Assembly: GCA_041740355.1 (NCBI GenBank)
Contig: JBGSMD010000009.1
Span: 66,864 to 130,863 of the forward strand
Direction: 5' to 3'
DNA length: 64,000 nt
Source of the DNA: Bdellovibrionota bacterium
GTDB lineage: Bacteria; Bdellovibrionota_C; UBA2361; CALJRW01
Below the pieces are notes generated by a model. The model did no database searches, was not told where the DNA came from, and saw only the letters and a list, made by a program, of their open reading frames with translations. The position numbers and the translations under genes were made by a program. Below, piece after piece: positions 5,751 to 63,620 of the stretch; the first letter of the stretch is position 1, and each line of letters begins with the position of its first letter.

Positions 5751-7193
5751 CTATTTTGCTAAATACAAAATAACAACTGCAATCAATCCAACTAAATAAC
5801 TAGCACGATCTTTTAACGCAAAAATTACAGGATCCTCATTTACTTGACCGCGGTTTGCTAAGATCCAAATTCGAGTAATCCAATACAGCAATAAGGGACA
5901 GATCATCCAAAGAAACTCAAGGTCACGATAAAGAACACCGAGGCCACTATTATTAATATAAAGTGCCATAACCAAAACTGAGACTAAGCCTCCGGAGACA
6001 CCCACAATTGCTACTATATTCAAATCTAATGCTGAATATCCCCGCCGAACAATACTATTACTAAGATTTGCTGATTTAACTAACTCCACATAGCGTTTGA
6101 GTCCAGCTAAACTAAAAAAGAAAAACATTGAAAAAGCCATTAACCAAAAGGAAACAACAATATTAGTTGCAAATCCACCTGCTAAAATTCTTACTGTGTA
6201 GAGTAATGACAAGATAATAATATCCAGCACTACTACTTGTTTAAAATAGGCTGAGTATGCAGTTGTAATTAGGAAATAAATTAATAAAATAAATGCAAAA
6301 TTAATTGGTAAAAAACATGTTAAAGAAATAGCACCAAGCAACAAAGCCGGGACTAGAACAAAGACATATTTAATAGGGAAATCAGCCGAAGCTAAAGGAC
6401 GTTTATTTTTAGACTGATGCAAGCGATCTGCTTCTAAGTCTGCCAAATCATTTAAGACATAAACCGCCGAGGCAGTTAAAGAAAAGACTACAAAAGCTAG
6501 CAGAGCCGACCAGAGCTCCTCTATTAGGAAAACCTTATGTGCTAAACAAAGAGGCAAAAACATTAGTAAGTTTTTAGCCCACTGATGTGGTCGCAGTAAT
6601 TTAATTAAAGATTTCCTAATTGAACGATACTGTTCATTAAATAAGTATTTAGGTTGTTTAATAGCACATGCTTTACTTAGCAATTTGCTGCTAGCATTAA
6701 CTGCCACGATTTCCTCTGCTTCAGCCCAAATCACCAAATCTGAATGGTCATTGCCACAATACTCAAAGGGCGCACCTTTAGTATATTCTTTGATCTTAGC
6801 GAGTTTATTCTTCCCTAGATTATTATAATCGACAGAACTAGCAATATAGTCTTCAAACACCGGAAAATGCTGAACGACCTGCTTAGCCCACAACTCATTA
6901 CTAGCAGTAGCTAAGATAATTTTTCGTCCGGTATTTTTTTCATTTATTAGATAATCAAAAAAATGTACCGTTAAAGGAGTCAGCTGTAAGTCAGGCTTTA
7001 CGTGCTCAGCGAGAAAGGCCTTAGCAGGTGCCTTTCCACTTGAAATTAAAATCCAAAGAACCTGAAAAAATCTCCAAGGATTGCTTTTTAAAAGAGTGAT
7101 TAAGCCTTCAAAAAAAAGATCACTTTTAAATAAAGTGCCATCTAAGTCGACAAAAATGTAATTCGAACTCTCTTTGGCTTGTTCCATATTCAA
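5751..7193 (-). CDS. fusion of a HAD-like phosphatase domain (N-terminal) and a UbiA-family polyprenyl-phosphate phosphoribosyltransferase (C-terminal, DPPR synthase-like)
   Basis: The N-terminus carries HAD motif I (FVDLDGTLF). The C-terminal half has multiple TM segments and the motif AFVVFSLTASAVYVLNDLADLEADR, nearly identical to M. tuberculosis Rv3806c (AFVVFSLAASAVYLVNDVRDVEADR). Confidence 0.8.
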   Translation of the reverse strand: MNMEQAKESSNYIFVDLDGTLFKSDLFFEGLITLLKSNPWRFFQVLWILISSGKAPAKAFLAEHVKPDLQLTPLTVHFFDYLINEKNTGRKIILATASNELWAKQVVQHFPVFEDYIASSVDYNNLGKNKLAKIKEYTKGAPFEYCGNDHSDLVIWAEAEEIVAVNASSKLLSKACAIKQPKYLFNEQYRSIRKSLIKLLRPHQWAKNLLMFLPLCLAHKVFLIEELWSALLAFVVFSLTASAVYVLNDLADLEADRLHQSKNKRPLASADFPIKYVFVLVPALLLGAISLTCFLPINFAFILLIYFLITTAYSAYFKQVVVLDIIILSLLYTVRILAGGFATNIVVSFWLMAFSMFFFFSLAGLKRYVELVKSANLSNSIVRRGYSALDLNIVAIVGVSGGLVSVLVMALYINNSGLGVLYRDLEFLWMICPLLLYWITRIWILANRGQVNEDPVIFALKDRASYLVGLIAVVILYLAK

Positions 7194-7943
7194 TTATTTT
7201 ACTGTATCAGTGTTTGGTAAAAACCAACCAAACCACTTTTGTTTCCAGGCAGGATTATTCCAAGTATTATATTTAATGATTGCATATATGGCGCGAAAGC
7301 CATCTCGCCAACCAATCTTTTTGCCCTCTTCGTAGGTTCTACCGTAATAAGAAATACCAACTTCAAAAATACGTGCCTTGGAGCGAGCAATCTTCGCGGT
7401 AATCTCTGGCTCAAAACCAAAACGTTCTTCTTCAATTTGAATATTTTGGATTATCTCACGGCGGAAAACTTTATAACAAGTTTCCATGTCAGTTAAATTG
7501 ATGTTCGTAAACATATTAGATAACAACGTCAGAAACTTATTCCCCATCATGTGCCAAAAATATACTACGCGGTGAGGCGCTGCACCCATAAATCTAGAAC
7601 CAAACACAACATCAGCCCGATCTTTTAAGATTGGCTCAATTAAAATTGCATATTCTTGGGGATCGTATTCCAAGTCAGCGTCTTGAATAATAACTAAGTC
7701 TCCGGTTGCTTCTTTAATACCAGTTCTCAAGGCTGCACCTTTCCCCTGATTATAATCATGATAAATAATCTTACTAACTCGTTCTACAACCTCTTCTCTT
7801 AAAAGCTCTCGTGTACCATCAGTTGAAAAATCATCCACAATGATAATTTCCAAATCTCTAACAGGTGAAGCTTTAACAGCATCAATAATTTGATGAATCG
7901 TTTCTTTTTCGTTGTAACAAGGAATAATAACGGATAGTTTCAT
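7194..7943 (-). CDS. GT2 family glycosyltransferase (polyprenyl-phosphate sugar synthase, DPM1/ArnC-like)
   Basis: VIIPCYNE...[11 protein letters not shown] and a DAD-like motif ([10 protein letters not shown]) typical of GT2 dolichyl/undecaprenyl-phosphate glycosyltransferases. First gene of the operon, adjacent to the UbiA fusion. Confidence 0.7.
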
Positions 7944-9625: not shown

Positions 9626-9959
9626 CTAGGCAATCCGTCTTCGCTAGAAGTTATTTAAAGATAAGAAGTTGTTTAAATGCTACGACGCGATAAATCCGTC
9701 TTCGCTAGAAGTTATTTAAGAATTAGATGATATTTATGGGCTCTGACGAGATCTTTTTTCTTCCTCTTCGATGAAATCGAAACTATCATTAGCCAGGCAA
9801 TCCGTCTTCGCTAGAAGTTATTTAAAGATAAGAAGTTGTTTAAATGCTACGACGCGATAAATCCATCTTCGCTAGAAGTTATTTAAGAGTTGGAAGATGT
9901 TTAGAGGCTACGAAGTGATCTTTTTTTCATTTTCGATGAAATCGAAAATGAAAAAAAGA
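9626..9959. repeat. tandem direct repeat, 2 x ~167 bp
   Basis: Unit 1 is 9626-9792 and unit 2 is 9793-9959, about 90% identical. Each unit carries an internal ~30-nt direct repeat (atccgtcttcgctagaagttatttaa) and a palindromic tttcgatgaaatcgaaa hairpin. Confidence 0.85.
9921..9955 (-). terminator. rho-independent terminator of rnpB (bidirectional hairpin inside tandem repeat unit 2)
   Basis: cattttcgat-gaa-atcgaaaatg hairpin flanked by A/T tracts on both sides. Confidence 0.6.
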
Positions 9960-10362
9960 GTTAAGCGATAAGCGGAGTTTTGTAATTATGTAGTCATTTA
10001 TCTGGGAACTTTGTCACCAAAGCCCTCAAGCGACTTACCTGAGTTTGATTGTTTCCAATCAGTGCGAGCAACACATAATACTCAATTTAGTCTTGCATCA
10101 GCTAGGGTTTACCAAGCCAAAGAGTTACCCCTTTGCTGGTGAGCTCTTACCTCACCGTTTCACCCTTACTCTCCCCTTTTGGGACGCCGAAGAGAATGCA
10201 TTGTATTAGCATTATCTAGTGCGTCTCAAAAGGGGAGAGCGGTTTAATTTCTGTGGCACTTTCCCCAAGTCACCTTGAGCTGCCGTTAGCAGCTAGCTTG
10301 CTCTATGAAGCTCCGACTTTCCTCAGTAATAATTAAATTACTGCGACTACTTGCTTAACTCT
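9956..10362 (-). ncRNA. rnpB: RNase P RNA (bacterial type A)
   Basis: The minus strand contains GAGGAAAGTCGGAGCTTCATAG (the P4 5' strand consensus GAGGAAAGUCCGGGCUCCAUAG). It contains GTAAGGGTGAAACGGTGAGGTAAGAGCTCACC (consensus UAAGGGUGAAAGGGUGCGGUAAGAGCGCACC). The 3' ACAAAACTCCGCTTATCG matches consensus ACAGAACCCGGCUUAUCG, with compensatory GGAG/CUCC changes in P4. The P1 ends gagttaagc/gcttaactc pair. A terminator hairpin follows the 3' end. Confidence 0.85.
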
Positions 10363-11523: not shown

Positions 11524-13086
11524 TTAGCATTTATTAAAATCTAGAATGAAAATCCTTCTTATCTTCCCTATTTTTTCTTGACCATCCCAATTATGGCCAT
11601 AATACTTTCTCACTCGACATTCAGATTTTGGTGTCAGGCCATTAATATAATCTTGAGAAGTAGAAACTAAGTAAACTTTTCCAACAGAAGATTTAATGGT
11701 CGTTTCTACTTCCTGTAATGAACATGATTTTACAGCAATTTGATCCAGCATTCCCAAATAAAGTTTCTCCCGAAAGGGCAATGAACGCAATGATTTGCTG
11801 TTAAAATCCAAGCAATAAAAAATTAATCTTGCCTGATTATTTTGAATTTCTTCCTTAATCTTTCTAACTGCATGCTCAAGCTCAATCACTTCCTTACTCT
11901 GAAAGATCATTTTTGCTGTTATGAATTGATGTCGAACAATCATCCCTGATATTGATAATAAGAAGATCAAACTAATACTTGCAACAATATATGACTTTTG
12001 GATTATTGAACTTTTCGCAAAGCGATATAAGTCAACCAATAACAACGCTGTTAAGATCGCAATTGCCGGAACGATTGGAGCAATGTACCAATAAAGTCGT
12101 GATTGCAGAATGCTATAAAAAATTATTGGAAAGACTATCCAAACAGTTAGAAAAAGATGTCGGGTACTGCGAAACGCGTAAATTATTCCATATACAATAG
12201 TGATAATTAAAATATATGGTGGGAAATCACGTCCCCCAAAAAATAGTACTCTCAAATAATAGAAATAATGCTTAGAGTTATTATGTCCTTGACTAACTAA
12301 CTTCTCCCAAATCTCAAAATTTATTGTTGCGGTAAAGGTACTGGACTGAGAAAATAAAACCAATCCTATTCCAGCGCTAAATAAAACTGGTAGAATCACA
12401 CCATAAAAACAGACTGGGATAAAACATTTTTTATTAAACAGAACCTTTGGTCTGAAAAGTAGAAAAACTCCCCCAATTAAAGCTGGCAATAATCCTGCGA
12501 CACTTTTGGATAATATGGAAAAAAATAAACAAATACCAAATAATAATGAATATTGTTTAATTTTAGAATTACTGGAAGCTGTTTCGAATACAATTCGTTC
12601 CATTTCCTCCCAAAGTTTCCAGCCACAAAAGAAAGTAAGAGTTGTAAAGAAAATCAGAACTCCATCAGTTACCGTCTCTCGAATTACATGCGAAGCAAAA
12701 ATTAATTTACATGAGAAGATGACTGCCAGGCTAATCAACGCAGTTCCTTTTGAACCGGTAATTGCTAAAGACAAAAAATAAACTGTTATTAAGAATAAAA
12801 ATCCAGCGATGGCACTCGGCAATCGATATGCGAAAACAGTTTCTCCCAGAATGTGGGTAGAAGCGTAAAACAAGTAGTGTACAAAAGGAGGTTTGTGCAG
12901 GAAGTGATTCCCGTTCAAAGTTGGAATCCAAGAATCGTTGATACGCATCTCTTGGACACTCCGAACATAAATACTTTCATCTGCCTTACTAAAAGAGTAA
13001 CTCCCTAAATTAAAAAAACAAAAATATAAACATACGAGTAAAATCACAGAAATGCTGAGATGTTCTACGAATCTACTGTATTTCAT
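11524..13086 (-). CDS. GT-C fold membrane glycosyltransferase, ArnT/PMT (GT39/GT83)-like
   Basis: About 12 predicted TM segments. Early-loop acidic motif FSKADESIYVRSVQEM resembles the DE motif of ArnT/PMT enzymes. Large C-terminal soluble domain. Confidence 0.65.
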   Translation of the reverse strand: MKYSRFVEHLSISVILLVCLYFCFFNLGSYSFSKADESIYVRSVQEMRINDSWIPTLNGNHFLHKPPFVHYLFYASTHILGETVFAYRLPSAIAGFLFLITVYFLSLAITGSKGTALISLAVIFSCKLIFASHVIRETVTDGVLIFFTTLTFFCGWKLWEEMERIVFETASSNSKIKQYSLLFGICLFFSILSKSVAGLLPALIGGVFLLFRPKVLFNKKCFIPVCFYGVILPVLFSAGIGLVLFSQSSTFTATINFEIWEKLVSQGHNNSKHYFYYLRVLFFGGRDFPPYILIITIVYGIIYAFRSTRHLFLTVWIVFPIIFYSILQSRLYWYIAPIVPAIAILTALLLVDLYRFAKSSIIQKSYIVASISLIFLLSISGMIVRHQFITAKMIFQSKEVIELEHAVRKIKEEIQNNQARLIFYCLDFNSKSLRSLPFREKLYLGMLDQIAVKSCSLQEVETTIKSSVGKVYLVSTSQDYINGLTPKSECRVRKYYGHNWDGQEKIGKIRRIFILDFNKC

Positions 13087-14559: not shown

Positions 14560-14633
14560 GGCTCCATAGCTCAGTTGGTTAGAGCAGCCGGCTCATAACC
14601 GGTTGGTCCTGTGTTCAAGTCACAGTGGAGCCA
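14560..14633 (+). tRNA. tRNA-Met (anticodon CAT)
   Basis: Cloverleaf folded by hand. Acceptor ggctcca/tggagcc, anticodon loop cuCAUaa, T-arm ctgtg-TTCAAGT-cacag. Discriminator A, no encoded CCA. Confidence 0.85.
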
Positions 14634-20224: not shown

Positions 20225-20297
<73 letters not shown>

Positions 20298-22745: not shown

Positions 22746-25700
22746 TTAATCACTTTTGATTTGATCAAATTCTGTTTGAAGAACTAAATCACCAGTATAA
22801 ATACCTTCGGAAACTAACAAATGATTATCCACCTCTGAAACTGAAATCTCAGATAGGGTAAAGTTAATCACATTTTGACCTACAACAACAGGTAATAATT
22901 CCTGTGAACTAACAGCAATCCAAGTTCCATCAGCTTTTTTAACTTCATCGCCTGGCTTAACTTCGATCGCACGTTTTAAGCCTGCTTTAGTTAAGACAAC
23001 GTGTTTCTGACTGATCTTAATTTTTTCCACACCATAAGTTAACTGAACCAAGGCTTCTGTTTCAGGTCCTTCTACTACTTTTAATACCTCTAATTTTTGA
23101 CCTGGGGCTCCAAGTAAATAATCACCAACTTTAACATTTTCAACAAGTACTTCTTGATTGTTAGCTAAAGTTACTTTTGTCCCTGGAGGGAAACATCCAT
23201 CAGATCCCCGATTACAAGCACATGTCCAGCAGGCATTCGGATCGGCTGACAGTTTAGTACCTGTGTAATCAGTCTGACCACCATTAGCATCAGTTACAAT
23301 AACATTACCATTAACGTCGACTCGGGTTACCCCTTGGTTAAGATTTGTATTGTTATAGAACAGATCAGCAATACCCTTATAGTTAGTAAAGTTAAATGCT
23401 GAATCAACCCCGTCACCCTTCACACAAACTATTTTTTTAGGATCACAATAATCATTATAACGATATCGACCTCGATCTACTTGAGTAGGAACAGGAACAT
23501 TATCACAAACGTTAACAACATCACATGTAGAAGAACATCCTGAGCCAGCTACACCATTATTAACTCCAAGGTCACATTTCTCTCCAAGTTCAGAACTTAC
23601 AATACCATCTCCACAATATTTCGTGATCTCACATTCTGTATTACAAATTTGCTTCGTTGGACTTGCTTGAGATCCAGGAATTAAATCAAAATCAGTTCCA
23701 TCGCAAAGTTCATTCTCATCCCTTATTCCATCACCACAATAAGGTACCTCTTCACATGTTACTGAACATCGAGAATTTGGTGTGCCATTACTTGCACCAA
23801 GATCACATTTTTCCCCTAGTTCCGGACTCAAGATACCATCTCCACAATATGGATTAATGGTACATTCATTATTACAAACTTGATTTGTCAGACTTATCTG
23901 TACTCCTTGATCTAAATAAAAGTCATCTCCATCACAAAGCTCACCTTCGTTACGAAATCCATCTCCACAGTATGGAGGAAATTCAACTCGGCAAAATTCA
24001 TTACAGGTTACCTTAGTAGGATCTACATTTAATGGGAAGTTAAGATCATCAGCGAAATCGCTGCCATCACATTCCTCATAAACTGGACAGCCAATAGCCT
24101 GACATGTTGGTTGATCTTTAGGTATGCCATTTACAATTCCATCTCCGCAGTATGGAGTCATTTCACAGTTCAGTGAACATCTAGAACCTAGTGTCCCATT
24201 TTTTACACCAAGGTCACATAGTTCTCCAAGTTCTGGACTGAAAATTCCGTCTCCACAATATAAGTTTACTTCACAAATGGAATTACATAATTGATCGGTA
24301 GTACTAACTTGAAGACCTTCAGCTAAATCAAAGTCATCACCATCACAAAGCTCGCCTTCACTCCGAATACCATCTCCACAATATGGCTCATCTTCACAGG
24401 TTAAGGAACATCTAGAACCAGGAGCACCGTTATTTTCTCCAAGATCACATTTTTCCCCTAATTCAAGATTTAGAATACCATCGCCACAATATGGATTAAT
24501 CCTACATTCTTCATTACAGACTTGATTGGCCAGACTGCTTTGAACTCCCGGATCTAAATTAAAGTCATCTCCATCACAAAGTTCCCCTTCATTTCGAATA
24601 TCATCACCACAATATGGTGGAAATTCTACTCGACAATAATCATTACAAGTTACTTTAGTGCGGTCAACATTTAATGGGTAATTAATATCATCCGAAAAAT
24701 CATTGCCATCACATTCTTCATAAACTGGACACCCAATTGCCTGGCAGGTCAGATCATCTTTAGAAACTCCATTAACAATTCCATCACCACAATACGGCTT
24801 AACTGTTACTTCACAGCTAGCGGAACAGGTTAGATTATTAAGCGGAATGTTATTAGGATTAGCATAGCCACTGAAATCATTTCCATCACAAATTTCACCA
24901 GCAGTTACGACTCCATCACCACAATAATCCTCTACAATGACAGTACAATCATCCCTACATGTTAAGGCATCCTGAGGGATATCCGCTTTATCAGGATTAA
25001 GTTCAAAGTAAACTGAAAAATCTTCACCATCGCATTCTTCGGTATCTGTGCAATAGCCCCAATCTTCTTCGAAGTTATCAACACAAAATGCTCGCTTCGC
25101 TTCTCCATCCCCACAATAAGGTCGGACATGAACATTACAACTTCCTGTACAAATTAAATTTGCTAGGGGAATATTATTTGGATTGGCATAATTACCAAAA
25201 TTTGTACCTTCGCAGATTTCATTGTCTGCTAATTGTCCATCTCCACAATATGGATCAATCTGACATTCGTTGGAACATTTTGCATTAGGATGAGTTACTC
25301 CACCAAGATCTGTTAAATCACATTCTTCAACTCCTGCCTGAATTTCACCATCACCACAATAGGTACATTTAAATCCATTTGCTCGGCAGTTTGGAACATA
25401 ACTTGCTTGACCAACTTTAATTCCATAATCACAATTCTCATTGTTAGTTTCATCTAAAAATCCATCGCCACAAACAACTACTTTGCAATTGTTGCGACAT
25501 GTCTTGCCAGCTGGAGTGTCAGTTCCATCACATTCTTCTAAGGGATTATTAACATCGTTATCTCCGCACTTAGTGCAATCCTCTCGACATCCAGTTTTAG
25601 TTTGAGGATCATTATAATCACAAGTTTCGCCTTTTGGTAAATCTATTTCTTGTGTCCAAACTCCATCACCGCAATAAGGAAGTCGGCAATCGGCACGGCA

Positions 25701-25973
25701 ATTATCCGTTAAGATCTTATTGCCATCATCACATTCTTCATCAAGTAAAATTAATCCATCACCGCAATATGAACAGGTCAGACATTCACAGTTTTTACAG
25801 CCACAAACATTAGGATCAGAAATGACTGCCGCAACAGAATTTGGATAGGCACTGCAATCTAGGTTTGAGATAACAGAATCTTGTGCGACTGTAAATGTTG
25901 GAATACTTGCTAGTATGAACAGGCTACAAAGTAACCTCACACAAAGAATAGAGAAAATTTTCGAGTTGGACAT
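22746..25973 (-). CDS. large secreted cysteine-rich repeat protein (Myxococcus-type CxxCGDG...ECD repeats, ~18 copies) with a C-terminal Hint/BIL (bacterial intein-like) domain
   Basis: Signal peptide. YCGDG(I/V)...E(L/I)CD(G/L) is reiterated through residues ~60-800. The C-terminal ~150 aa begin CFPPGTKV and end HLLVSEGIYTGDLVL, matching the Hint-domain pattern. There is extensive DNA-level internal repetition. Confidence 0.8.
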   Translation of the reverse strand: MSNSKIFSILCVRLLCSLFILASIPTFTVAQDSVISNLDCSAYPNSVAAVISDPNVCGCKNCECLTCSYCGDGLILLDEECDDGNKILTDNCRADCRLPYCGDGVWTQEIDLPKGETCDYNDPQTKTGCREDCTKCGDNDVNNPLEECDGTDTPAGKTCRNNCKVVVCGDGFLDETNNENCDYGIKVGQASYVPNCRANGFKCTYCGDGEIQAGVEECDLTDLGGVTHPNAKCSNECQIDPYCGDGQLADNEICEGTNFGNYANPNNIPLANLICTGSCNVHVRPYCGDGEAKRAFCVDNFEEDWGYCTDTEECDGEDFSVYFELNPDKADIPQDALTCRDDCTVIVEDYCGDGVVTAGEICDGNDFSGYANPNNIPLNNLTCSASCEVTVKPYCGDGIVNGVSKDDLTCQAIGCPVYEECDGNDFSDDINYPLNVDRTKVTCNDYCRVEFPPYCGDDIRNEGELCDGDDFNLDPGVQSSLANQVCNEECRINPYCGDGILNLELGEKCDLGENNGAPGSRCSLTCEDEPYCGDGIRSEGELCDGDDFDLAEGLQVSTTDQLCNSICEVNLYCGDGIFSPELGELCDLGVKNGTLGSRCSLNCEMTPYCGDGIVNGIPKDQPTCQAIGCPVYEECDGSDFADDLNFPLNVDPTKVTCNEFCRVEFPPYCGDGFRNEGELCDGDDFYLDQGVQISLTNQVCNNECTINPYCGDGILSPELGEKCDLGASNGTPNSRCSVTCEEVPYCGDGIRDENELCDGTDFDLIPGSQASPTKQICNTECEITKYCGDGIVSSELGEKCDLGVNNGVAGSGCSSTCDVVNVCDNVPVPTQVDRGRYRYNDYCDPKKIVCVKGDGVDSAFNFTNYKGIADLFYNNTNLNQGVTRVDVNGNVIVTDANGGQTDYTGTKLSADPNACWTCACNRGSDGCFPPGTKVTLANNQEVLVENVKVGDYLLGAPGQKLEVLKVVEGPETEALVQLTYGVEKIKISQKHVVLTKAGLKRAIEVKPGDEVKKADGTWIAVSSQELLPVVVGQNVINFTLSEISVSEVDNHLLVSEGIYTGDLVLQTEFDQIKSD

Positions 25974-26267: not shown

Positions 26268-26957
26268 TTACTCCGTCGCTATTTCTTCTTCTATTACTTC
26301 TGGATCCAGCGTAATAACAGGTTCAACTTGAACAGCTACTGGCTGATTAATAATTTCCATTGCAGTTAAATCGCCAGTGACAATCCCATTTGATAACAAC
26401 ATGTGATTTTCAAGCTGGTCATCCCCTTCTAGCCTAATATTAAAAACTTTCTGCTTAGCTTTCACTGGTAAATACTGTACTTTTGATACTTCAGCTTTCG
26501 TTCCATTAAGATTAGCCAAGTGACCTCGTTTAACATCTCTAGCAGGAATAGTTCCTTCGTCAGTTTTAACTGGATGGGTCTCCGTAACTTTGACTGTTTT
26601 ATTACCAACAGTAATTACAACAATCGGTTCAGATTCAAAAGACTCCAGAACATTAACTACTTTAGCTATTTTTCCACTGACAGGATTTATCACTTGATCT
26701 CCAACTTGGATATCTTTAATTGCTTTCTCCAGTCCATCTCCCATCAGGATTTTGGTATCTGGCACAAAACAACTTGGCAATGCTTGTGGTGAGCCTTGTT
26801 GCGAGCTTGCCGAACCCTGTGGTGAGCCCTGTGGTGAGCTTGTCGAACCCACTGTCGAACCACCACTGCCTTCCGCAACCAACAAAATTGGAATACTAAT
26901 TAATAACAAAGTATAAATTAGGCTTTTAGATAAATTGGCAATTTGAGATAGAAACAT
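26268..26957 (-). CDS. small secreted Hint/BIL-domain protein
   Basis: Signal peptide. Ser/Gln/Gly-rich linker (GSPQGSASSQQGSPQ), then CFVPDTKILMGDG...NHMLLSNGIVTGDL, a Hint-domain pattern paralogous to the C-terminus of the upstream 1075-aa protein. Confidence 0.7.
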   Translation of the reverse strand: MFLSQIANLSKSLIYTLLLISIPILLVAEGSGGSTVGSTSSPQGSPQGSASSQQGSPQALPSCFVPDTKILMGDGLEKAIKDIQVGDQVINPVSGKIAKVVNVLESFESEPIVVITVGNKTVKVTETHPVKTDEGTIPARDVKRGHLANLNGTKAEVSKVQYLPVKAKQKVFNIRLEGDDQLENHMLLSNGIVTGDLTAMEIINQPVAVQVEPVITLDPEVIEEEIATE

Positions 26958-30157: not shown

Positions 30158-30607
30158 TTATTTAGTGCTGAGAGTTTTGCACATTTCCCAATGTGGGATT
30201 GAAACTTCCAAAAAGCATTCCCCATGTTTCGTATAACCTAGTAATTGATAAAACTTAAGTGCTGTATCTCTGGCATGAAGAATCATTTGGGTATACTCAC
30301 GTTCTTCAGCAAACTGTTCTGAGTATTTAACTAAGGCTCGACCAATTCCTTTTCCCTGCAAAGTACTCACTACAGCTACTTGTCGCATTTGGATTTGAGT
30401 ACTTGTAAGCGGACGTAAAACCAAACAACCTAATAACTTATTTTCTAAATAACATCCCAAATGAAAAGAATTCGATTCATTAGATAATTCTTCACTAGAA
30501 AAATTAAGTCCAAGCGGTTGGCGTAAAATGGTATCACGCAATTGAACAGTTAACTGATAGGCCTCTGATCCATAAGGAATTATCTGAAATGAATACTGTT
30601 CGGTCAT
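30158..30607 (-). CDS. GNAT family N-acetyltransferase
   Basis: 149 aa. Acetyl-CoA binding motif (LQGKGIGRALV). Confidence 0.65.
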   Translation of the reverse strand: MTEQYSFQIIPYGSEAYQLTVQLRDTILRQPLGLNFSSEELSNESNSFHLGCYLENKLLGCLVLRPLTSTQIQMRQVAVVSTLQGKGIGRALVKYSEQFAEEREYTQMILHARDTALKFYQLLGYTKHGECFLEVSIPHWEMCKTLSTK

Positions 30608-30631: not shown

Positions 30632-31930
30632 CTAAGATAATTCTAATATCTTTCTTAACAGCTCACTATTGTGCGAATGCCCAGTCATGTTAGCTGTAAT
30701 CTTACCCACGATAGGTCGACCAAGAAGATAAATATCTCCGATCATATCTAGAATTTTATGTCGCACGGGCTCATCAGGGAAACGAAGCTCCGAGTTGATC
30801 ACGCCATCTTCGCCAATCAACACAAAATTATTAAATCTTCCACCCTGCGCTAACCCTTGTTTCTGAAGATAATCAATATCTTTAACAAAGCCAAAAGTTC
30901 GACAGCTAGCAATTTCCCTTTGATAACTTTCAAAGTTATCCATTTTAAAAATATAATGTTGCTCCCCAATTGGTTGTTGATAATTGAGCGTGTAGTCAAT
31001 AATTAATTCTTCTGCTGGCTCTAATCGTATAAAAGCGTCCCCTTTTCGCACTTCTATAGTTTGAGTGACCATTAATTCGGCAATACTTGCTGACTGTTCT
31101 TTAATGCCTACTTCTTGAAACATTTTACAGAATTCAATTGCGGAGCCATCCATAACTGGAACTTCCTCATTACACTTAATTAATAAGTTAGTAATTCCGG
31201 CTGCGTGGAGTGCCGACATTAAATGCTCAATAGTTGACACTTGAGAGTCGGCATTTTTAATTGTCGTAGCGTATCCAGTAGTGCTGACATAGTTAACGTG
31301 CGCCGGAACAGCCTGCTTACTCCCAGGTCCAGCAAAGTGAATGCCTGAATTTTCTGGTAGTGGTTCCAAAATTAAACCTGATTTGCGACCACTGTGAACT
31401 CCCACTCCATAAAGAATGCTACTGCCTGCTAAAGTTTTCTGAACTCTTTCTTTGCCAACAAAAAAATCATTTTTAAAAACATCACTTGTAATTTGGCAAG
31501 TTTGCAAAGATAGGCTTTCAATTTCAGGAAGATGAACTGAAGAATTACTCTTACTTGTCAAAGCTTTATTAACAACTTGTTGAATAACTAGTAAGTCTAG
31601 GGGCTTTTCAATAAAATCAATGGCTCCTAACTGCGTCGCTTTTACTGCTGTGGAAATAGTAGCGTGGCCACTAATCATTACCACTGGCAAAAGACTATCA
31701 AGGCTACGAATCTTTTCTAAAGTCTCCATTCCATCCATCCCTGGCAACCAAATATCCAAGAATACTAGTGCCGGAGATTTTTCTTTAATAATTTCAAGCG
31801 CCTGATTGCCATTACTGGCATGACAACAAATCATGCCAAGATCTTCTAGGACATGACTTAAAGTCTCACAAATACTTTTCTCGTCATCGACAATTAAAGC
31901 TAAATTATTGTTGTTCATAGTAAATTTCAA
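30632..31930 (-). CDS. lpxC: response-regulator receiver domain fused to UDP-3-O-acyl-N-acetylglucosamine deacetylase (REC-LpxC)
   Basis: Residues 1-~125 form an NtrC-like receiver: LIVDDE, phospho-acceptor FLDIWLPGMDG, VVMISGH and FIEKP. Residues ~150-432 are collinear with LpxC: GVGVHSGRKS, TTIKN, TIEHLMSAL (catalytic Glu-His), EVPVMDGSA, HKILDMIGD (Zn ligands His/Asp) and TGHSHN. Confidence 0.85.
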   Translation of the reverse strand: MKFTMNNNNLALIVDDEKSICETLSHVLEDLGMICCHASNGNQALEIIKEKSPALVFLDIWLPGMDGMETLEKIRSLDSLLPVVMISGHATISTAVKATQLGAIDFIEKPLDLLVIQQVVNKALTSKSNSSVHLPEIESLSLQTCQITSDVFKNDFFVGKERVQKTLAGSSILYGVGVHSGRKSGLILEPLPENSGIHFAGPGSKQAVPAHVNYVSTTGYATTIKNADSQVSTIEHLMSALHAAGITNLLIKCNEEVPVMDGSAIEFCKMFQEVGIKEQSASIAELMVTQTIEVRKGDAFIRLEPAEELIIDYTLNYQQPIGEQHYIFKMDNFESYQREIASCRTFGFVKDIDYLQKQGLAQGGRFNNFVLIGEDGVINSELRFPDEPVRHKILDMIGDIYLLGRPIVGKITANMTGHSHNSELLRKILELS

Positions 31931-32085
31931 AAATTACTTTATTAATATAGTAATTTACGGCGAGTGTGAATATTAGAGCCTTGTCCTCCGAAGCCTTTGC
32001 CTAGGAGTGGATGCAATTTCACACCGCAGTATCAAAATAAAAAGTTATTCATTAAAACTTTAATAAGTACAAATCACTAAGTGAA

Positions 32086-41024: not shown

Positions 41025-41431
41025 ACACCTCTATAATTCTCTCTTCGTAGTCGACCAAGTTTACACAATAACAAGTTGTAAAAATATTGCAGTTAACTTT
41101 AGAATCAAAGCACCACAAACCTTGAAGAGGTGAAATATATAACAAATATAGAGAATTAATTCAAATCAAAATCAAATTAAACTAGAGTCTTAATTTTGAG
41201 CTTTAAAACGCTTAACGTAGTTATTTCCCTAGAATATAGTGCAATCCATAATCCTGGGAAGAAAAAGTAGGAATTTTAATACTTTTACCTTTCAATGTTA
41301 AAGAAAATTTGGTTTAAAAATTACAATTTTATTGAATAAAATTGATTAAGAAATTAGCTAATGATAAGTTGTTAACCTTACAAAGTTCAGATTCTGTTGA
41401 CTTTTCCAAATTCCAACTTGAGATTACAAAT

Positions 41432-42640
41432 ATGATTAATCGAATAACCTCCCAAGTACTATTATCTTTACTGATCACAATACTAAGTGTTTTTAGTTGT
41501 TATGCAGACCTTCCAGAAAGTTGCCTCGGCGATTGCCCAGTTGAAAACCTATGTGGCAATCAACAAGTAGACCCAGGGGAAGAATGTGATTCAACCGAAG
41601 GCTGTAATTACAATTGCCAATATGCAGTCTGCGGAAACGGTATCGTGGAAGAAGGTTCTGGTGAGCAATGTGACAATGGAGAAACAGATTTAAATTGTTT
41701 AGATGAAGAATCTAATTGTAACTTTATGCAAAATCTTCGAATTCAAGGTGGTCAAGAGTTAGTCACCATTTGTAACGATAGTTGCTTACTTCAAACCTGC
41801 GGAAATGAAATCATTGAGGGTGATGAACAATGTGATTTCGGTGATACAGAAGATGGAGATGGTTGTAGCGCCTCTTGTCGCCTTGAGGAATGCGGAAATG
41901 AAATCATTGAGGGTGATGAACAATGTGATTTCGGTGATACGGAAATTGGAGATGGTTGTAGCGCCTCCTGTCGCTTTGAGGAATGTGGCAATAGTATCCT
42001 TGACCCTGGTGAGCAATGCGATGAGGGTAATCCATCTTCTAATGATGGCTGTAGCAATACCTGTATAATTGAAACTGAATGCGTTGGAAATAATTGTGGC
42101 CCCCAAGCTGAAGTATTTGATTGTCTTGATAAAGAAGGTCAGCTCAATAAGCTTGACCGATGTCAGGTCTGTGGCGGAGATGGTCAAAGTTGTCTAGCAT
42201 GCGTGGAAAGCAGTAACGTAGAAGATCAACTAAGAATGGATGGAGCTTCAAAAAGAATGGCTGGACTAATAATTGGTCTAAATAAAAAATTACTAAAACT
42301 TGAGATCTCTAATCAATTAAAAAGAAACCTACTTAATTCTAATAATCAAGTTAAGGAACTTTACTTAACTAGTTGGACATTAGCTTGGTCACTGCCACTT
42401 GTTACAAAAGCATGCAACACGGTGTTTTGTACAACAGCAGATCTTTCGCCCCTGGTAGTATTATACGCCGAGAAGCTGGCGGAAATAGAAGCTGAAGCTA
42501 GAAAATCGGCTCGAATCCTAAAACGCTTAACAGGCAATAAAAATTCAGCAAAACAATTTTTGGAGAAAATTACAGAACAGTATAATTCTGGAATTGAGAC
42601 ATCAGGTCTTGTGACTACATCAACAAGCGTTTGCTCATAA
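41432..42640 (+). CDS. secreted cysteine-rich repeat protein (CGNxI..GDEQCD..DGCSxSC repeats)
   Basis: The ORF track starts at 41342, but the signal peptide begins at Met31 (MINRITSQVLLSLLITILSVFSCYA, ATG at 41432). It has four or more CGN...ECD...DGCS repeats of the same Myxococcus-type family as the 1075-aa protein. It also contains a 93-bp perfect-ish tandem DNA duplication. Confidence 0.7.
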   Translation: MINRITSQVLLSLLITILSVFSCYADLPESCLGDCPVENLCGNQQVDPGEECDSTEGCNYNCQYAVCGNGIVEEGSGEQCDNGETDLNCLDEESNCNFMQNLRIQGGQELVTICNDSCLLQTCGNEIIEGDEQCDFGDTEDGDGCSASCRLEECGNEIIEGDEQCDFGDTEIGDGCSASCRFEECGNSILDPGEQCDEGNPSSNDGCSNTCIIETECVGNNCGPQAEVFDCLDKEGQLNKLDRCQVCGGDGQSCLACVESSNVEDQLRMDGASKRMAGLIIGLNKKLLKLEISNQLKRNLLNSNNQVKELYLTSWTLAWSLPLVTKACNTVFCTTADLSPLVVLYAEKLAEIEAEARKSARILKRLTGNKNSAKQFLEKITEQYNSGIETSGLVTTSTSVCS

Positions 42641-53285: not shown

Positions 53286-54884
53286 TTATGATAGGAAAGG
53301 TTTTTCAAAACTTAACTTGGAGAAGAAACGTCCCTTGAATTGACGTAGAGATTTTTCTGACACTTCTTTTAAGGCAGTCTCGTTGGCACCAGTAATTGCC
53401 AAATCTAATAACTCTAACTGCCTTGCAAATCCAAGATTAAAAGTTATATCTGCTTTGTTCATTTCATAAAATGATTTGCCAGCATTTTTTAACTCAACGA
53501 GTCGATCCTTAAATCCAGAAAAAGAAACTGGGCCATGAGTTAATATTTCTGCTAAGTAATCAAGTGACTCTTGAAGTTTTACAACCTGCAACACTAAGCG
53601 AATCTGCTTTAATGCCTCACTTCCTGAGTCTGTATTTTTATCCTGAGCAGCCTGTCGAAGGTTCGCAATCTGCAGATCGATTTGTTTCTTAAATGTAAGA
53701 TAGGGGCGAGCTTCAACTTGAGATAACAGTCGATCGTTTAAACCAAGCCGAGTTAAATAATTTGTAATTTCTTTATCTGTTCTTTCAGGATTTAGCTGTC
53801 GATTTCCAGTAGTAAATGCCTGCAAACCTTTAGTAAAAACTATCTGCTTATCAAAAACTCTTTCTGCTTTTGCAAAAACTTCGGAATGTGTTGCTCGGTA
53901 TTTTACTAAAGCTAAACGATCTTCAATATTAGCAGTTGTTATCTTGGTAACTGACTTTAATCGTTTTGAAAACTTATCAAGTGCCGCATGTAAACGAGCC
54001 CAAGTAGCACTAGTATTAGTTCTTTCTTTTCGATCTCGCAGATTGCCTGACTTAGCTACTTGTTCTCGACCTAATATCTTCGATAATAATAATACATTTT
54101 TCAATTGCTCAACTACTTCTCCAGCAACCTCACCTGCAAAACTTCGCACAAATGCTTTTTCATCCGAATCTAATTGCCCCCAATCACCAACTTGACCTCG
54201 AAGCTCCACTACGTTTTTGGCTAAGCGTGTTAATTTATCTACTTCTTTAATATGATGTTGTTCTTCATGTAGCGTCTTACGATAAGCAGAAGATAAACTT
54301 GTAAAGCACATTGCTAATTTATGATCAGAATCAATTTCCTTACGAAAATAGATGATGCTCCCCATTAACTCCGGCTTTCTTGCAACTAAAGAATTTAGGA
54401 TTGGTGATTCTTGGGTAATAATTTGAATGCGATTATTTGTTGCTGGCACTGGAGTAAGACTATTAAATACAGCCTTTAGTTCGGATACAACTTGAGCAGT
54501 AATATCGACTTTCTTAACGGGATTATCCAAAATGCCAAAATTTCTGAGCAACTCAGATGAAATTTTTGTGGGATCTAATTTAACACGTGTACTTGAAATT
54601 GAATCCAAAGTAACTTTATCATCAAGTGCCATCTGACCAGTTGACCTATCAAACTTAACTGGCAGACAATAATCAACAAGTTTTGTGCAACTTGTGAAGA
54701 GTAATTTATATTGCGAGTTAGGAATCTGGGCCCAAAGTTCTAAGAATACTTTACGAGACAATCCAATCTTTTGGGCTTCTTCAAGATTAACAAATGATGT
54801 TTCAACAACATTTTCGGGGCTTAAACTTCTTACTACTTCTGGTTTCATGTGTAATATTATGTCGGAAATCGAAGTCCTAATCAA
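53286..54884 (-). CDS. hypothetical protein (532 aa)
   Basis: Long ORF with no recognisable motif, upstream of amt on the same strand. Confidence 0.45.
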   Translation of the reverse strand: MIRTSISDIILHMKPEVVRSLSPENVVETSFVNLEEAQKIGLSRKVFLELWAQIPNSQYKLLFTSCTKLVDYCLPVKFDRSTGQMALDDKVTLDSISSTRVKLDPTKISSELLRNFGILDNPVKKVDITAQVVSELKAVFNSLTPVPATNNRIQIITQESPILNSLVARKPELMGSIIYFRKEIDSDHKLAMCFTSLSSAYRKTLHEEQHHIKEVDKLTRLAKNVVELRGQVGDWGQLDSDEKAFVRSFAGEVAGEVVEQLKNVLLLSKILGREQVAKSGNLRDRKERTNTSATWARLHAALDKFSKRLKSVTKITTANIEDRLALVKYRATHSEVFAKAERVFDKQIVFTKGLQAFTTGNRQLNPERTDKEITNYLTRLGLNDRLLSQVEARPYLTFKKQIDLQIANLRQAAQDKNTDSGSEALKQIRLVLQVVKLQESLDYLAEILTHGPVSFSGFKDRLVELKNAGKSFYEMNKADITFNLGFARQLELLDLAITGANETALKEVSEKSLRQFKGRFFSKLSFEKPFLS

Positions 54885-54922
54885 ACTTACTTCAATCTTA
54901 TATTAAATGTAGCTATGTCTTT

Positions 54923-55966
54923 TTAGTGTAGTTTAAGGTCTTTAGCTCTTAACTTGATTTTTTCAAACCAGAAAGCATTTGTAAGAAATTGATAATAATC
55001 TAAATAACTAAATTGTTCAGAAAATTCCTTTTTCCACTTAGCTAAATTATTAGGAGTAATCTCTTGATAATCATCAAGAATCTTAACCGGCAATCCTTGA
55101 TAAAGCGGATCAAGCACAGACTTTTCCACAATAACATAAGACCCTAGAACTAAAGCTTCCCATGTTCGGTGACAATCAAGTCCTGATCCATGAGGAGAAA
55201 TAATAAAATCATACTTGGCCATTTCCTTCCAAAGAATGTCCCTACTCAAACGTTTCGCTTGAAATTTTACGGCAGGATTTCCTTGTAATTGCTGAATAAT
55301 CTCATTACGATCTTTTTTTATTTTATGATCGCGCTTTTTAAGTAGTCGAGTGGAATTATTAAATTGAAAATCAGCATAAGCTAAGTTCTGTTTATTTTTT
55401 GGTGCTGCATCCCTTGTTGCTAAAAGCAGTAACTCTTGTTCTTTAGGACTAGCAATCTGCTTAAAGCGCCATGAGGTCTGCTCATATTGCGAATGAAAAT
55501 CAATACCCAAAGGCAATGGTGTGACTTTAATAATATTAGAATTTTCCTGATCGCAGTTTTGGGCAAACCAATGAACTAATAACTCTTTATCTAAAATCTT
55601 TTGAATTTCATCAGACTCAATTTCTTTTGGAAGACTAATTGTAGAATCTCCTGTTACTAAGACAAATGGCTCTTTAATACACGGGAAAACTTCATAAAAA
55701 AAAGATTTGATAAACTTACCCTTAACCCAGACAATCTCCCCTGCCTTAATATTTTGATAAGCACTGGCATTAAACTCCTGGCTAAAATCATAGCGATCGC
55801 AAAGCATTGCTAATCCTTTATTCCAAAGAATTTCAGTATTATTTGGATAAGTTCTAGGTGAGAGTCGTTTCTTTTTTAATAAATATTTTAAAAAAGATAG
55901 CATAATAATGTGATTAGTTAATGAACAATAAATAATTATTAATAGTTTAAATTGCTTTGCAACCAC
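54923..55966 (-). CDS. hypothetical protein, possibly glycosyltransferase-like
   Basis: The C-terminal segment [25 protein letters not shown] resembles nucleotide-sugar transferase C-terminal motifs; this is weak. The N-terminus overlaps the metH 3' end, and an internal Met22 start (55903) avoids the overlap. Confidence 0.4.
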
Positions 55967-63543: not shown

Positions 63544-63620
63544 GGTGGTTGTAGCTCAGTTGGTAGAGCTCTTGATTGTGATTCAAGTTGTCGCGGGTTC
63601 GAGCCCCGTCATCCACCCCA
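63544..63620 (+). tRNA. tRNA-His (anticodon GTG) with G-1 and encoded CCA
   Basis: An extra 5' G pairs with discriminator C. Anticodon loop uuGUGau. T-arm cgggTTCGAGCcccg. A 3' CCA is present. Confidence 0.9.

Follow-up and report, generated by a model that had tools for sequence, protein, structure and literature searches.

Why would a response-regulator receiver (REC) domain be attached to LpxC, the UDP-3-O-acyl-GlcNAc deacetylase? The question is raised by one gene in a 64-kb stretch of DNA, which we refer to as the window, and a sequence-only reading of this gene had answered that the fusion implies direct phosphorelay control of lipid A synthesis.

The ORF list of the window contains a single uninterrupted minus-strand ORF (30632-31930) that encodes both domains. 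The sequence-only reading had given these coordinates, which hold for the ORF; it had named no strand, and we prefer the ATG at 31918 as the start of the gene over the TTG at 31930, an in-frame alternative that adds four residues (432 aa). The ATG is favoured by database gene calls and by the closest relative, and the start-codon region aligns with that of a relative, L081, in an alignment of the intergenic region. A database protein of 428 aa (P0001) is 100% identical to REC-LpxC. The Pfam search that had been suggested recovers both domains complete (PF00072 and PF03331), and the motifs that had been quoted (FLDIWLPGMDG, TIEHL, HKILDMIGD and TGHSHN) are all present in the translation. An assembly or frameshift artefact is excluded, as nothing interrupts the frame and hundreds of independent assemblies contain this architecture; in addition, the identical protein was obtained from two sources. 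The frameshift or stop between two genes that had been named as a threat to the fusion is therefore not there. The features of the locus are collected in Table 1.

Table 1. Features of the REC-LpxC locus (positions in the 64-kb window).
Feature	Position	Strand	Detail
REC-LpxC gene	30632..31918	-	CDS 30635-31918, 428 aa from ATG; stop codon 30632-30634
Receiver (REC) domain, NtrX-type	31553..31906	-	aa 5-122; PF00072
Phospho-acceptor Asp55 codon	31754-31756	-	REC domain
Interdomain linker	31454..31552	-	aa 123-155
LpxC domain (UDP-3-O-acyl-GlcNAc deacetylase)	30635..31453	-	aa 156-428; PF03331
E231-H232 codons	31223-31228	-	LpxC domain
HKILDMIGD motif (H387, K388, D391, D395)	30734-30760	-	LpxC domain
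H414 codon	30677-30679	-	LpxC domain
Conserved hairpin, arms GCGGUGUGAAAU / AUUCACACUCGC	31958..32030	-	167-nt purA/REC-lpxC intergenic region

What kind of receiver is this? The Response_reg model scored 103 bits (cut-off 30.2, E 1e-29, profile positions 2-110 of 111). The phosphorylation quintet is intact (D11, D12, D55, S83 and K105 in the numbering of the 428-aa protein), which bears out the DD pair, acceptor Asp, Thr/Ser and Lys that had been read from the sequence, and F102 (switch aromatic) and P106 (cis-Pro) are in place as well. AlphaFold predicts five strands alternating with five helices, the (beta-alpha)5 pattern, with high pLDDT. The domain had been called NtrC-type. While it is indeed an intact receiver, it is more specifically of the NtrX type: its best NCBIfam match is NtrX (NF051870, 111.5 bits), a signature of the form DIW...SGH...DF.EKP, with W57 and H85 among its residues in common, is found both here and in the canonical NtrX whose gene follows ntrY. 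The best PDB matches are 4d6x (“bacterial regulatory, Fis family protein”) and 5m7n (“nitrogen assimilation regulatory protein”). The NF051870 match covers only positions 5-122 of a 452-position profile and stays below its cut-off of 600 bits, and Pfam detected neither an AAA+ domain nor HTH_8 in the protein; because of this, REC-LpxC is, as judged from its domains, a derivative of NtrX and not an NtrX. Nor is it a sigma-54-dependent activator of the NtrC type, as the protein has no AAA+ domain.

The other half matches LpxC over its full length. The Pfam LpxC model scored 298 bits (cut-off 27, E 7e-89, profile positions 1-267 of 268), the NCBIfam lpxC equivalog TIGR00325 gave 265 bits against 187, and sequence matches to LpxC structures in the PDB were found at E ~1e-51. 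With 34-37% identity to the solved LpxCs, this half superposes on those of E. coli, P. aeruginosa and A. aeolicus with target-normalised TM scores of 0.81-0.92 and rmsd of 2.3-2.9 A (Foldseek). The zinc ligands H232, H387 and D391 (H79, H238 and D242 in E. coli, equivalents being assigned by motif) are all present, as are the catalytic residues E231 and H414 (E78 and H265) together with T341, K388 and D395 (T191, K239 and D246), in keeping with the earlier claim that none had been lost. The window contains a single LpxC-coding region, as does each of the related loci that were searched. We infer that this half is an active enzyme and probably the sole LpxC of its genome.

To place the protein in a wider context, we collected 302 related fusion proteins, short and long. 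The phospho-acceptor Asp is kept in 300 of them (166 of 167 short and 134 of 135 long forms), K105 in 301, and the whole phosphorylation pocket in about 99%. In the LpxC domain of 301 fusions, the E/H/H/K/D/D/H set is invariant, and 10 of them have Ser in place of T341. A codon alignment gave omega (dN/dS) values of 0.022 for REC, 0.016 for LpxC and 0.15 for the linker. Both halves are under purifying selection, and REC-LpxC is neither an assembly artefact nor a decaying paralogue.

The gene also sits in a conserved setting. A relative with a 93%-identical fusion protein and an Oligoflexia MAG (55%) have the same gene order, rimP-nusA-ylxR-infB-rbfA-nrnA-truB-(purA)-[REC-lpxC]-3HCDH-mreB, and the fusion and IF-2 matches come from contigs of matching length and show parallel identity series. 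Embedded in this housekeeping synteny, REC-lpxC behaves as a core gene. These data bear on the suggestion that REC-LpxC is a non-essential or catalytically altered paralogue, acting for instance on another acyl-sugar, while a canonical lpxC elsewhere does the housekeeping. A few LpxC positions are specific to fusions (five in all, among them G181, K248 and C264), as might be expected of an altered enzyme. However, an LpxC domain that passes the equivalog cut-off with its catalytic and zinc residues invariant, that diverges in step with IF-2 in a housekeeping neighbourhood and that is the only one found at each locus makes such a paralogue extremely improbable.

Two neighbours in the window were considered and rejected. 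A GNAT gene lies 24 nt downstream of REC-lpxC, but it is missing from every related locus, including that of the 93%-identical relative, and is not a likely functional partner. A TPR protein encoded at 2600-3562 is not LapB, giving weak generic TPR matches and no match to a LapB model. The 167-nt region between purA and REC-lpxC contains a hairpin (Table 1) with a fold of -33.8 kcal/mol (z = -2.5). This region is 81% identical to that of L081 although the flanking genes have a dS of ~2.2; L081 has the same two arms, and a 30-nt indel separates the loops. The hairpin has no Rfam match, and a promoter and terminator consensus scan around REC-lpxC showed no enrichment over shuffles. It is possibly a terminator of purA or a 5'-leader element of REC-lpxC, and we assign it to the latter gene only tentatively.

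The family is widespread. Among the matches listed, the fusion was found in MAGs labelled Nitrospinota, Nitrospirota, Leptospirales, Binataceae and Thermodesulfobacteriota, and sequence databases contain it in large numbers from several phyla, usually annotated just “LpxC” or “NtrX”. Its genomic context was drawn throughout from MAGs and metagenome contigs, and the gene content of related loci from tblastn probes and precomputed gene calls. A common origin of all fusion LpxC domains received only 57% neighbour-joining bootstrap support. The earlier suggestion of a lifecycle switch gains no specific support from this distribution, which includes groups not known as predatory. We found no characterised REC-LpxC in the literature searched, as the sequence-only reading had supposed, and no mention of the fusion there, including in a 2025 review of lipid A regulation (PMC12444477); Galperin's response-regulator censuses may list the architecture. 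It is uncharacterised rather than unseen.

Many of the relatives are full NtrX::LpxC proteins, in which REC is followed by Sigma54_activat and AAA_lid domains (plus HTH_8) and then by LpxC; JGI annotates these long forms as NtrX. The AAA+ and HTH modules occupy the position that the linker has in the short forms, and in many long forms a Fis-type HTH is still found after AAA+ and before LpxC. Of 132 long forms, 129 have the Walker A motif and not one has GAFTGA; their Walker B usually deviates from DE. Because the family includes these full-length proteins, REC-LpxC of the window is a reduced member of a superfamily and not an isolated invention. AAA+ and HTH were apparently lost repeatedly, with REC and LpxC retained. 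The reduction may have run from lpxC beside ntrYX, through NtrX::LpxC (REC-AAA+-HTH-LpxC), to REC::LpxC. REC-LpxC of the window appears to be a reduced, kinase-orphan member of this family, in an uncultured, low-GC lineage that, going by its nearest named relatives, resembles Bdellovibrionota or Oligoflexia.

Which kinase could act on the receiver? In some relatives, the gene for the NtrY kinase is next door. It lies immediately upstream of three short fusions (L007, L009 and L010) and three long ones (L087, L089 and L090), it ends just upstream of the REC match in at least 38 of 48 REC-only loci, and some fusion-family genes are part of DUF4390-ntrY operons. No separate ntrX was detected in the flanks of L007, L009 and L010 (up to 8 kb on each side), so LpxC is the only visible output of these operons. 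A similar arrangement is found where lpxC is not fused: ntrY lies ~0.5-1.7 kb downstream on the same strand at all eight stand-alone lpxC loci retrieved, most of which also have DUF4390; in other phyla stand-alone lpxC adjoins a DUF4390-ntrY-ntrX operon, and lpxC-ntrY-ntrX clusters occur in MAGs of Syntrophaceae and Acidobacteriota. A pair of genes for a PAS kinase and an HDOD protein was found near four Bdellovibrionota-type fusion loci. Within the 64-kb window, we detected no histidine kinase (HisKA/HATPase_c), no ntrY and no HDOD/PAS-kinase pair. The position of some family genes right behind ntrY nevertheless makes direct phosphorelay control of lipid A plausible.

Published work ties regulators of this kind to lpxC. 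Deletion of ntrYX in R. sphaeroides raised lpxC mRNA 8.8-fold and increased LPS (PMC7240162). In D. vulgaris, lpxC is the single target of the NtrC-family regulator DVU2934, and S. fumaroxidans has lpxC directly upstream of the operon of the orthologous regulator (PMC3333781).

The orphan state of the gene in the window raises the alternative that REC is used without phosphorylation, for constitutive dimerisation, scaffolding or tethering to the membrane or a kinase, leaving LpxC unregulated through Asp55. Phosphorylation-independent receiver domains exist in other proteins, and the lack of an adjacent kinase in the window lineage fits this idea. Pseudo-receivers, however, typically lose pocket residues, whereas D11, D12, D55, S/T83 and K105 are kept almost without exception in the family under an omega of 0.02, and ntrY is operonic with several family members. 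We therefore regard a phosphorylation-free role as very improbable.

Taken together, REC-LpxC is probably a housekeeping LpxC that is gated post-translationally by phosphorylation of its receiver. A histidine kinase would phosphorylate Asp55. In some related lineages this could be the NtrY-type membrane kinase of the same operon, while in the window lineage it would be encoded elsewhere, the PAS kinase with an HDOD partner being a candidate. Phosphorylation would shift the conserved alpha4-beta5-alpha5 face, by REC dimerisation or by release or docking of REC on the LpxC domain, and so alter the output of LpxC after translation; envelope or periplasmic signals could thereby set lipid A flux directly. 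We infer that REC is phosphorylated in vivo, with an effect on activity rather than on stability or location.

If information instead flowed the other way, the occupancy of LpxC by substrate or product would be reported to REC, and the protein would serve as a trigger enzyme or as a phosphate sink that tunes NtrY/NtrX-type signalling; in long forms, DNA binding would also be tuned by the supply of lipid A precursors. The Fis-type HTH of many long forms means that these could be transcription factors dependent on their enzyme domain, and the known NtrYX regulons take in many envelope genes (PMC7240162; bioRxiv 10.1101/2021.04.17.440287). On the other hand, the short forms, including the protein of the window, have no DNA-binding domain or other output except LpxC, which is also the sole visible output at L007, L009 and L010, and it is precisely AAA+ and HTH that were apparently lost while REC and LpxC stayed. 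These considerations make reverse flow a decidedly poor prospect.

Proteolysis by FtsH/LapB had been taken as the normal control of LpxC, but this route is essentially enterobacterial and no general norm (PMC12444477). The protein of the window stops ~3 aa past the LpxC core and has no C-terminal tail. A tail of at least 25 aa was found in 0 of 273 fusions, and the median tail is 1 aa in fusions versus 22 aa in stand-alone LpxC. The fusions, REC-LpxC of the window included, thus lack the C-terminal extension that in E. coli LpxC carries the LAxxxxxAVLA-type degron for FtsH/LapB (PMC12444477), and we see no other element on the protein through which it might be controlled. The window also encodes neither lapB nor ftsH.

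One could propose that phosphorylation-dependent proteolysis has replaced the C-terminal degron/LapB/FtsH route, REC exposing or hiding a degradation signal or recruiting a protease or adaptor. E. coli LpxC is indeed controlled by proteolysis, as is alphaproteobacterial LpxC in E. coli, by Lon (PMC12444477), and since the fusion LpxCs are tail-less, any control by degradation would have to act through another part of the protein, such as REC at the N-terminus or the disordered linker. However, no protease or adaptor gene is conserved beside the fusion at the related loci examined, no degron is identifiable in the fusion sequence, and proteolysis is not universal, as the LpxC of P. aeruginosa probably escapes it altogether (PMC12444477). 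We consider control of LpxC amount unlikely.

Returning to gating of activity, we examined a structural model for hints of how the two domains could communicate. In the AlphaFold model (mean pLDDT 83.5, pTM 0.68) both domains are folded, and linker residues 126-139 are predicted to be disordered (pLDDT <50). The linker had been put at ~30 aa, close to the ~33 aa that we find; its length and sequence vary in an alignment of the fusion family, and a short pre-LpxC segment (F148, G155) is conserved in the Bdellovibrionota-type clade. With a disordered linker and this pTM, the model shows no confident REC-LpxC interface or interdomain packing. The fusion-specific LpxC positions define no REC docking surface either, as they number five and the protein of the window departs at two. 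A more specific version of the gating hypothesis, to which we give somewhat less than even credence, is that phosphorylation of the NtrX-type REC switches LpxC allosterically or by dimerisation, a new post-translational mechanism that would replace the FtsH/LapB route in the fusion lineages. If true, it would account for the envelope and LPS phenotypes of NtrYX mutants in Alphaproteobacteria without binding of NtrX to the lpxC promoter.

How the rate of lipid A synthesis is set outside Enterobacteriaceae is largely open; the 2025 review describes fragmentary mechanisms there, with NtrYX as a non-specific transcriptional influence (PMC12444477). The fusion, together with the lpxC-ntrYX clusters of several phyla, provides a “Rosetta stone” argument that NtrYX and LpxC are functionally coupled. 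If confirmed, receiver gating would represent a novel kind of regulation for an enzyme that is an antibiotic target, a conserved core function for NtrYX, and a case of a transcription factor reduced stepwise to a receiver-gated enzyme.

How does REC-LpxC compare with known systems? NtrX (NF051870) is the closest REC family. The long relatives share its layout of REC, AAA+ without GAFTGA, and Fis-type HTH, some fusion members share its operon context with DUF4390 and ntrY, and NtrYX is tied experimentally to lpxC mRNA and LPS (PMC7240162). The protein of the window differs in having no AAA+ or HTH, an enzyme rather than DNA binding as its output, and no ntrY in the surrounding 64 kb. Like DVU2934 and the alphaproteobacterial NtrYX/ChvGI, it would make an NtrC/NtrX-family regulator act on LpxC supply, and the S. 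fumaroxidans arrangement of lpxC and regulator matches the lpxC-ntrY-ntrX clusters of Syntrophaceae and Acidobacteriota MAGs. Those systems, however, act on transcription through separate proteins, whereas here the receiver is covalently attached to the enzyme, without a DNA-binding domain. Canonical stand-alone LpxC, which is subject to LapB/FtsH/YejM control, has the same fold, zinc ligands and catalytic residues, and the score is at equivalog level; REC-LpxC has gained REC and a linker at its N-terminus and is without the C-terminal tail in which the FtsH/LapB degron of E. coli resides. LpxC-FabZ (NF009667 / PRK13188) is another natural fusion and indicates that LpxC tolerates partners. Its partner is C-terminal and metabolic (the FabZ dehydratase), in contrast to an N-terminal signalling domain, and NF009667 gave REC-LpxC 201 bits against a cut-off of 465, through the LpxC part only. 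In CheB (REC-methylesterase), PleD/WspR (REC-GGDEF) and RpfG (REC-HD-GYP), phosphorylation controls an enzyme by relief of occlusion or by dimerisation, and REC-LpxC resembles them in having an N-terminal REC, a flexible linker and a C-terminal catalytic domain. These are signalling enzymes, whereas the output of REC-LpxC is a biosynthetic and presumably essential housekeeping enzyme.

The open reading frame that encodes the fusion is 1,299 nt long. We favor the ATG at 31918, which gives a protein of 428 aa, as its biologically likely start, because a 428-aa database protein present in both NCBI and Logan (P0001) is 100% identical to the window protein, and because the start region aligns with that of the closest relative. 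The sequence-only reading had placed a receiver and LpxC in a single ORF. This is borne out by full-domain Pfam matches to the receiver (PF00072, 103 bits) and to LpxC (PF03331, 298 bits, profile positions 1-267 of 268) and by the NCBIfam lpxC equivalog TIGR00325 (265 bits against a cut-off of 187), and all of the motifs quoted in that reading were found in the translation. The REC-LpxC observation is confirmed, far beyond chance. On all computational criteria the window protein is an LpxC, and by the same kind of evidence it holds a bona fide receiver domain. By their defining features, it does not belong with NtrX, the sigma-54 activators, LpxC-FabZ or the E. coli-type degron-bearing LpxCs.

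Both Pfam domains were found in all 120 best matches from a collection of 5.8 billion proteins. When residue conservation was counted over 302 collected fusion sequences, the phospho-acceptor Asp (Asp55 in the 428-aa numbering) was kept in 300, the conserved Lys in 301 and the Ser/Thr in 302, while E231, H232, H387, K388, D391, D395 and H414 of the LpxC domain were 100% conserved. The closest relative shares 92.5% amino-acid identity with the window protein at saturated synonymous sites (dS about 2.2), and dN/dS against it was 0.022 for REC, 0.016 for LpxC and 0.15 for the linker. Judged by sequence, the phosphorylation pocket is intact and under strong constraint, and the active site of the LpxC domain is likewise intact. 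An assembly artefact or a decaying paralog is ruled out by the family-wide domain pair, the kept residues, the low dN/dS and the housekeeping synteny of the gene. The C-terminal tail is absent from the fusion LpxCs (median 1 aa, with 25 aa or more in 0 of 273); in stand-alone LpxCs its median length is 22 aa. In E. coli LpxC, this tail is the site of the FtsH/LapB degron (PMC12444477).

The receiver had been described as intact and NtrC-type. It is intact, but among protein families it matches NtrX best (NF051870, 111.5 bits), with AtoC, FixJ and NtrC scoring lower, and of the solved structures that contain a REC, 4d6x and 5m7n are the closest in sequence. Its alpha4-beta5-alpha5 region (SGHATISTAV..T.LGA.DF.EKP) is highly conserved, with hallmark residues common to canonical NtrX. 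A representative library at 50% identity contained about 27 clusters of short REC-LpxC fusions and about 20 clusters of 650-736-aa proteins, which by Pfam consist of REC, Sigma54_activat/AAA_lid_14 (with or without HTH_8) and LpxC, and which the JGI pipeline labels NtrX. Intermediates also occur, such as the 505-aa REC-HTH-LpxC protein P0137. Among the long forms, Walker A was present in 129 of 132 and the sigma-54-contacting GAFTGA loop in 0 of 132, and Walker B was mostly degenerate, which we take to be the pattern of NtrX rather than NtrC. Three proteins of 535-615 aa (P0157, P0158, P0162) have AAA+/lid and LpxC without a REC domain; their gene calls may be truncated at the N terminus, or they may represent a genuine variant that lacks REC. 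The long forms are often found in MAGs labelled Nitrospinota, Tectomicrobia, Schekmanbacteria and Thermodesulfobacteriota; the labels of MAGs with short forms are Bdellovibrionota/Oligoflexia, "Deltaproteobacteria", Dadabacteria, Thermodesulfobacteriota, Binataceae, Nitrospirota and Leptospirales. The family is a widespread, uncharacterised one of NtrX-derived receiver::LpxC proteins, and its taxonomic spread lends no support to the lifecycle switch that had been offered as an example of its role.

In a neighbor-joining tree of 145 LpxC domains (269 columns), nearly all fusion LpxC domains fell in one clade apart from the stand-alone LpxCs (bootstrap 57%). Bootstrap values were 62% for the Bdellovibrionota-type clade of the window and 100% each for the ntrY-adjacent short group and the Nitrospirota/Leptospirales/Oligoflexales short group. 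Long and short forms were interleaved, which suggests that the AAA+/HTH region was lost repeatedly, with moderate support at the deep nodes. Three divergent short forms (P0165, P0179, P0180; 33-37% identity), whose REC motif is 'SAxxD' and not 'SGH', lie outside the main fusion clade; they may be members that evolve fast, or may have arisen by independent fusion.

The NtrY-type kinase gene (NtrY_N-HAMP-PAS-HisKA-HATPase_c) adjoins the long fusion in 3 of the 6 long-form loci sampled. It precedes the fusion in L087, L089 and L090, with a gap of 10-27 nt in the latter two; DUF4390 also precedes it in two of these three loci, and purN, lolA, rseP and then rimP-nusA often follow. In L007, L009 and L010 (Binataceae and "delta" MAGs), the short fusion directly follows ntrY, and no separate ntrX was detected in the flanking DNA examined. 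Among 48 REC-only loci retrieved with the REC motif of the family, ntrY ends just before REC in at least 38, which marks these as canonical ntrYX operons. We also retrieved eight stand-alone lpxC loci with the LpxC motif, a search that did not select for ntrY but favored fusion-like LpxCs. In all eight, from Acidobacteriota, Syntrophaceae and Mariprofundaceae MAGs, ntrY follows lpxC on the same strand at a distance of about 0.5-1.7 kb, mostly with DUF4390 in between, and an ntrX-like AAA+/HTH gene is found downstream in seven. In L021-L025, L029, L031, L074 and L034 (Acidobacteriota, Syntrophaceae, Mariprofundaceae and Thermodesulfobacteriota MAGs), an unfused lpxC directly precedes (DUF4390-)ntrY-ntrX and has the same orientation. 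In four Bdellovibrionota-type loci, a conserved, divergent HDOD-HD gene and a gene for a PAS-HisKA-HATPase kinase of ~430 aa lie just upstream of REC-lpxC, and more distant HDOD-HD genes flank Nitrospinota long fusions (see table). The HDOD-HD/PAS-kinase genes are possible alternative signalling partners. Neither ntrY nor the HDOD/PAS-kinase pair occurs within the 64-kb window, whose fusion appears to be a reduced, kinase-orphan member of the family.

The gene order rimP-nusA-ylxR-infB-rbfA-nrnA-truB-purA-[REC-lpxC]-(GNAT)-3HCDH-mreB is a housekeeping synteny common to GCA_031385045.1 and an Oligoflexia MAG (55% protein identity). IF-2 matches parallel the fusion matches in their identity series and in the lengths of their contigs; together with the synteny, this indicates that REC-lpxC was inherited vertically as a core gene. 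The lineage is uncultured and has a GC content of 35-39%. Even the closest relatives with a name, which are Oligoflexia, Bdellovibrionota and Bdellovibrionales MAGs, show no more than 52-60% identity in IF-2. The deacetylase gene is followed after 24 nt, on the same strand, by a GNAT acetyltransferase gene. We rejected it as a functional partner and regard it as a lineage-specific insertion, because it is missing from every related locus, including that of the relative with a 93% identical fusion protein. The purA/REC-lpxC intergenic region contains a conserved hairpin (fold z-score -2.5; no Rfam match) that could be a terminator or leader element. Its arms are identical in the relative L081, with a 30-nt indel in the loop, and in this comparison of two sequences the whole region is 81% identical despite saturation of synonymous sites in the genes on either side.

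Both domains are well folded in an AlphaFold2 model based on a family alignment of 40 sequences (mean pLDDT 83.5, pTM 0.68), in which residues 126-139 are disordered and no REC-LpxC interface is confident. The LpxC half superposes on the LpxCs of E. coli, P. aeruginosa and A. aeolicus (target-normalised TM 0.81-0.92), and only five LpxC positions, weakly informative, are fusion-specific. A long, variable and disordered linker joins the two domains; in relatives, about 330 aa of AAA+/HTH can take its place. We propose that a histidine kinase would phosphorylate Asp55 and that this would alter LpxC output after translation. The kinase would be NtrY-type where operonic, and for the window protein possibly the PAS kinase of sister lineages. 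Dimerisation driven by REC, or tethered docking and release like that of CheB, is more plausible than a rigid arrangement within the molecule, because regulation would persist across tethers that differ widely. As an analogy for the sign of regulation, NtrYX loss in R. sphaeroides raised lpxC mRNA 8.8-fold and increased LPS (PMC7240162).

Elsewhere in the window, an SDR-FAD oxidase-UbiA-GT2 cluster with a nearby PMT gene resembles a DprE1/DprE2/UbiA-type polyprenyl-phospho-sugar donor pathway with an ArnT-like transferase, and is thus a candidate system for glycosylation of the envelope or of lipid A. The close relative GCA_031385045.1 has two 890-924-aa versions of the DUF4215/Hint proteins at the corresponding place.

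Features of the window and of HDOD-HD genes at related loci
Feature	Sequence	Positions (strand)	Remark
SDR	window	3613-4380 (-)	
FAD_binding_4 oxidase	window	4347-5639 (-)	
HAD+UbiA prenyltransferase fusion	window	5751-7193 (-)	
GT2	window	7194-7943 (-)	
Bacterial class A RNase P RNA	window	9953-10362 (-)	ordinary
PMT/PMT_2 GT-C glycosyltransferase	window	11524-13086 (-)	
Three tRNA genes	window	14560-14633, 20225-20297, 63545-63617 (+)	ordinary
Large DUF4215 Cys-rich-repeat proteins with C-terminal Hint/Vint domains, and stand-alone Hint-domain ORF	window	22746-25973 (-), 26268-26957 (-), 41342-42640 (+)	
GNAT acetyltransferase	window	30158-30607 (-)	
REC-lpxC ORF	window	30632-31930 (-)	
Hairpin	window	31958-32030 (-)	
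ORFs of 532, 347 and 574 aa	window	53286-55966 (-), 61773-63497 (+)	no NCBIfam match; 532 and 347 aa also no Pfam match, directly downstream of metH
HDOD-HD + PAS kinase pair	L001	5514-7727	
HDOD-HD + PAS kinase pair	L002	3590-5790	
HDOD-HD + PAS kinase pair	L008	4958-7158	
HDOD-HD + PAS kinase pair	L082	5514-7744	
HDOD-HD	L085	6496-7353	
HDOD-HD	L086	7586-8440, 13585-14424	

We found no description of a REC-LpxC or NtrX-LpxC fusion in the literature searched, which did not extend to Galperin's response-regulator censuses. The words "fusion", "fused", "receiver" and "response regulator" are absent from a review of lipid A regulation published in JBC in 2025, according to which LpxC is not specifically modulated by NtrYX (PMC12444477). 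In Alphaproteobacteria, NtrYX and ChvGI affect LpxC transcriptionally (PMC7240162, PMC12444477, bioRxiv 10.1101/2021.04.17.440287). The D. vulgaris NtrC-family regulator DVU2934, reported to be widely conserved and to occur also in Acidobacterium, has lpxC as its single target, and the orthologous operon of S. fumaroxidans is directly preceded by lpxC (PMC3333781). This arrangement matches the lpxC-ntrY-ntrX clusters in our MAGs, for which we found no other published description. Set in this evolutionary context, the fusion is of more interest than it would be as a lone oddity. All published links between two-component systems and LpxC work at the level of transcription and run through separate proteins, whereas the fusion joins both in one protein. 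It brings together two known themes: response regulators with enzymatic outputs and the regulation of LpxC.
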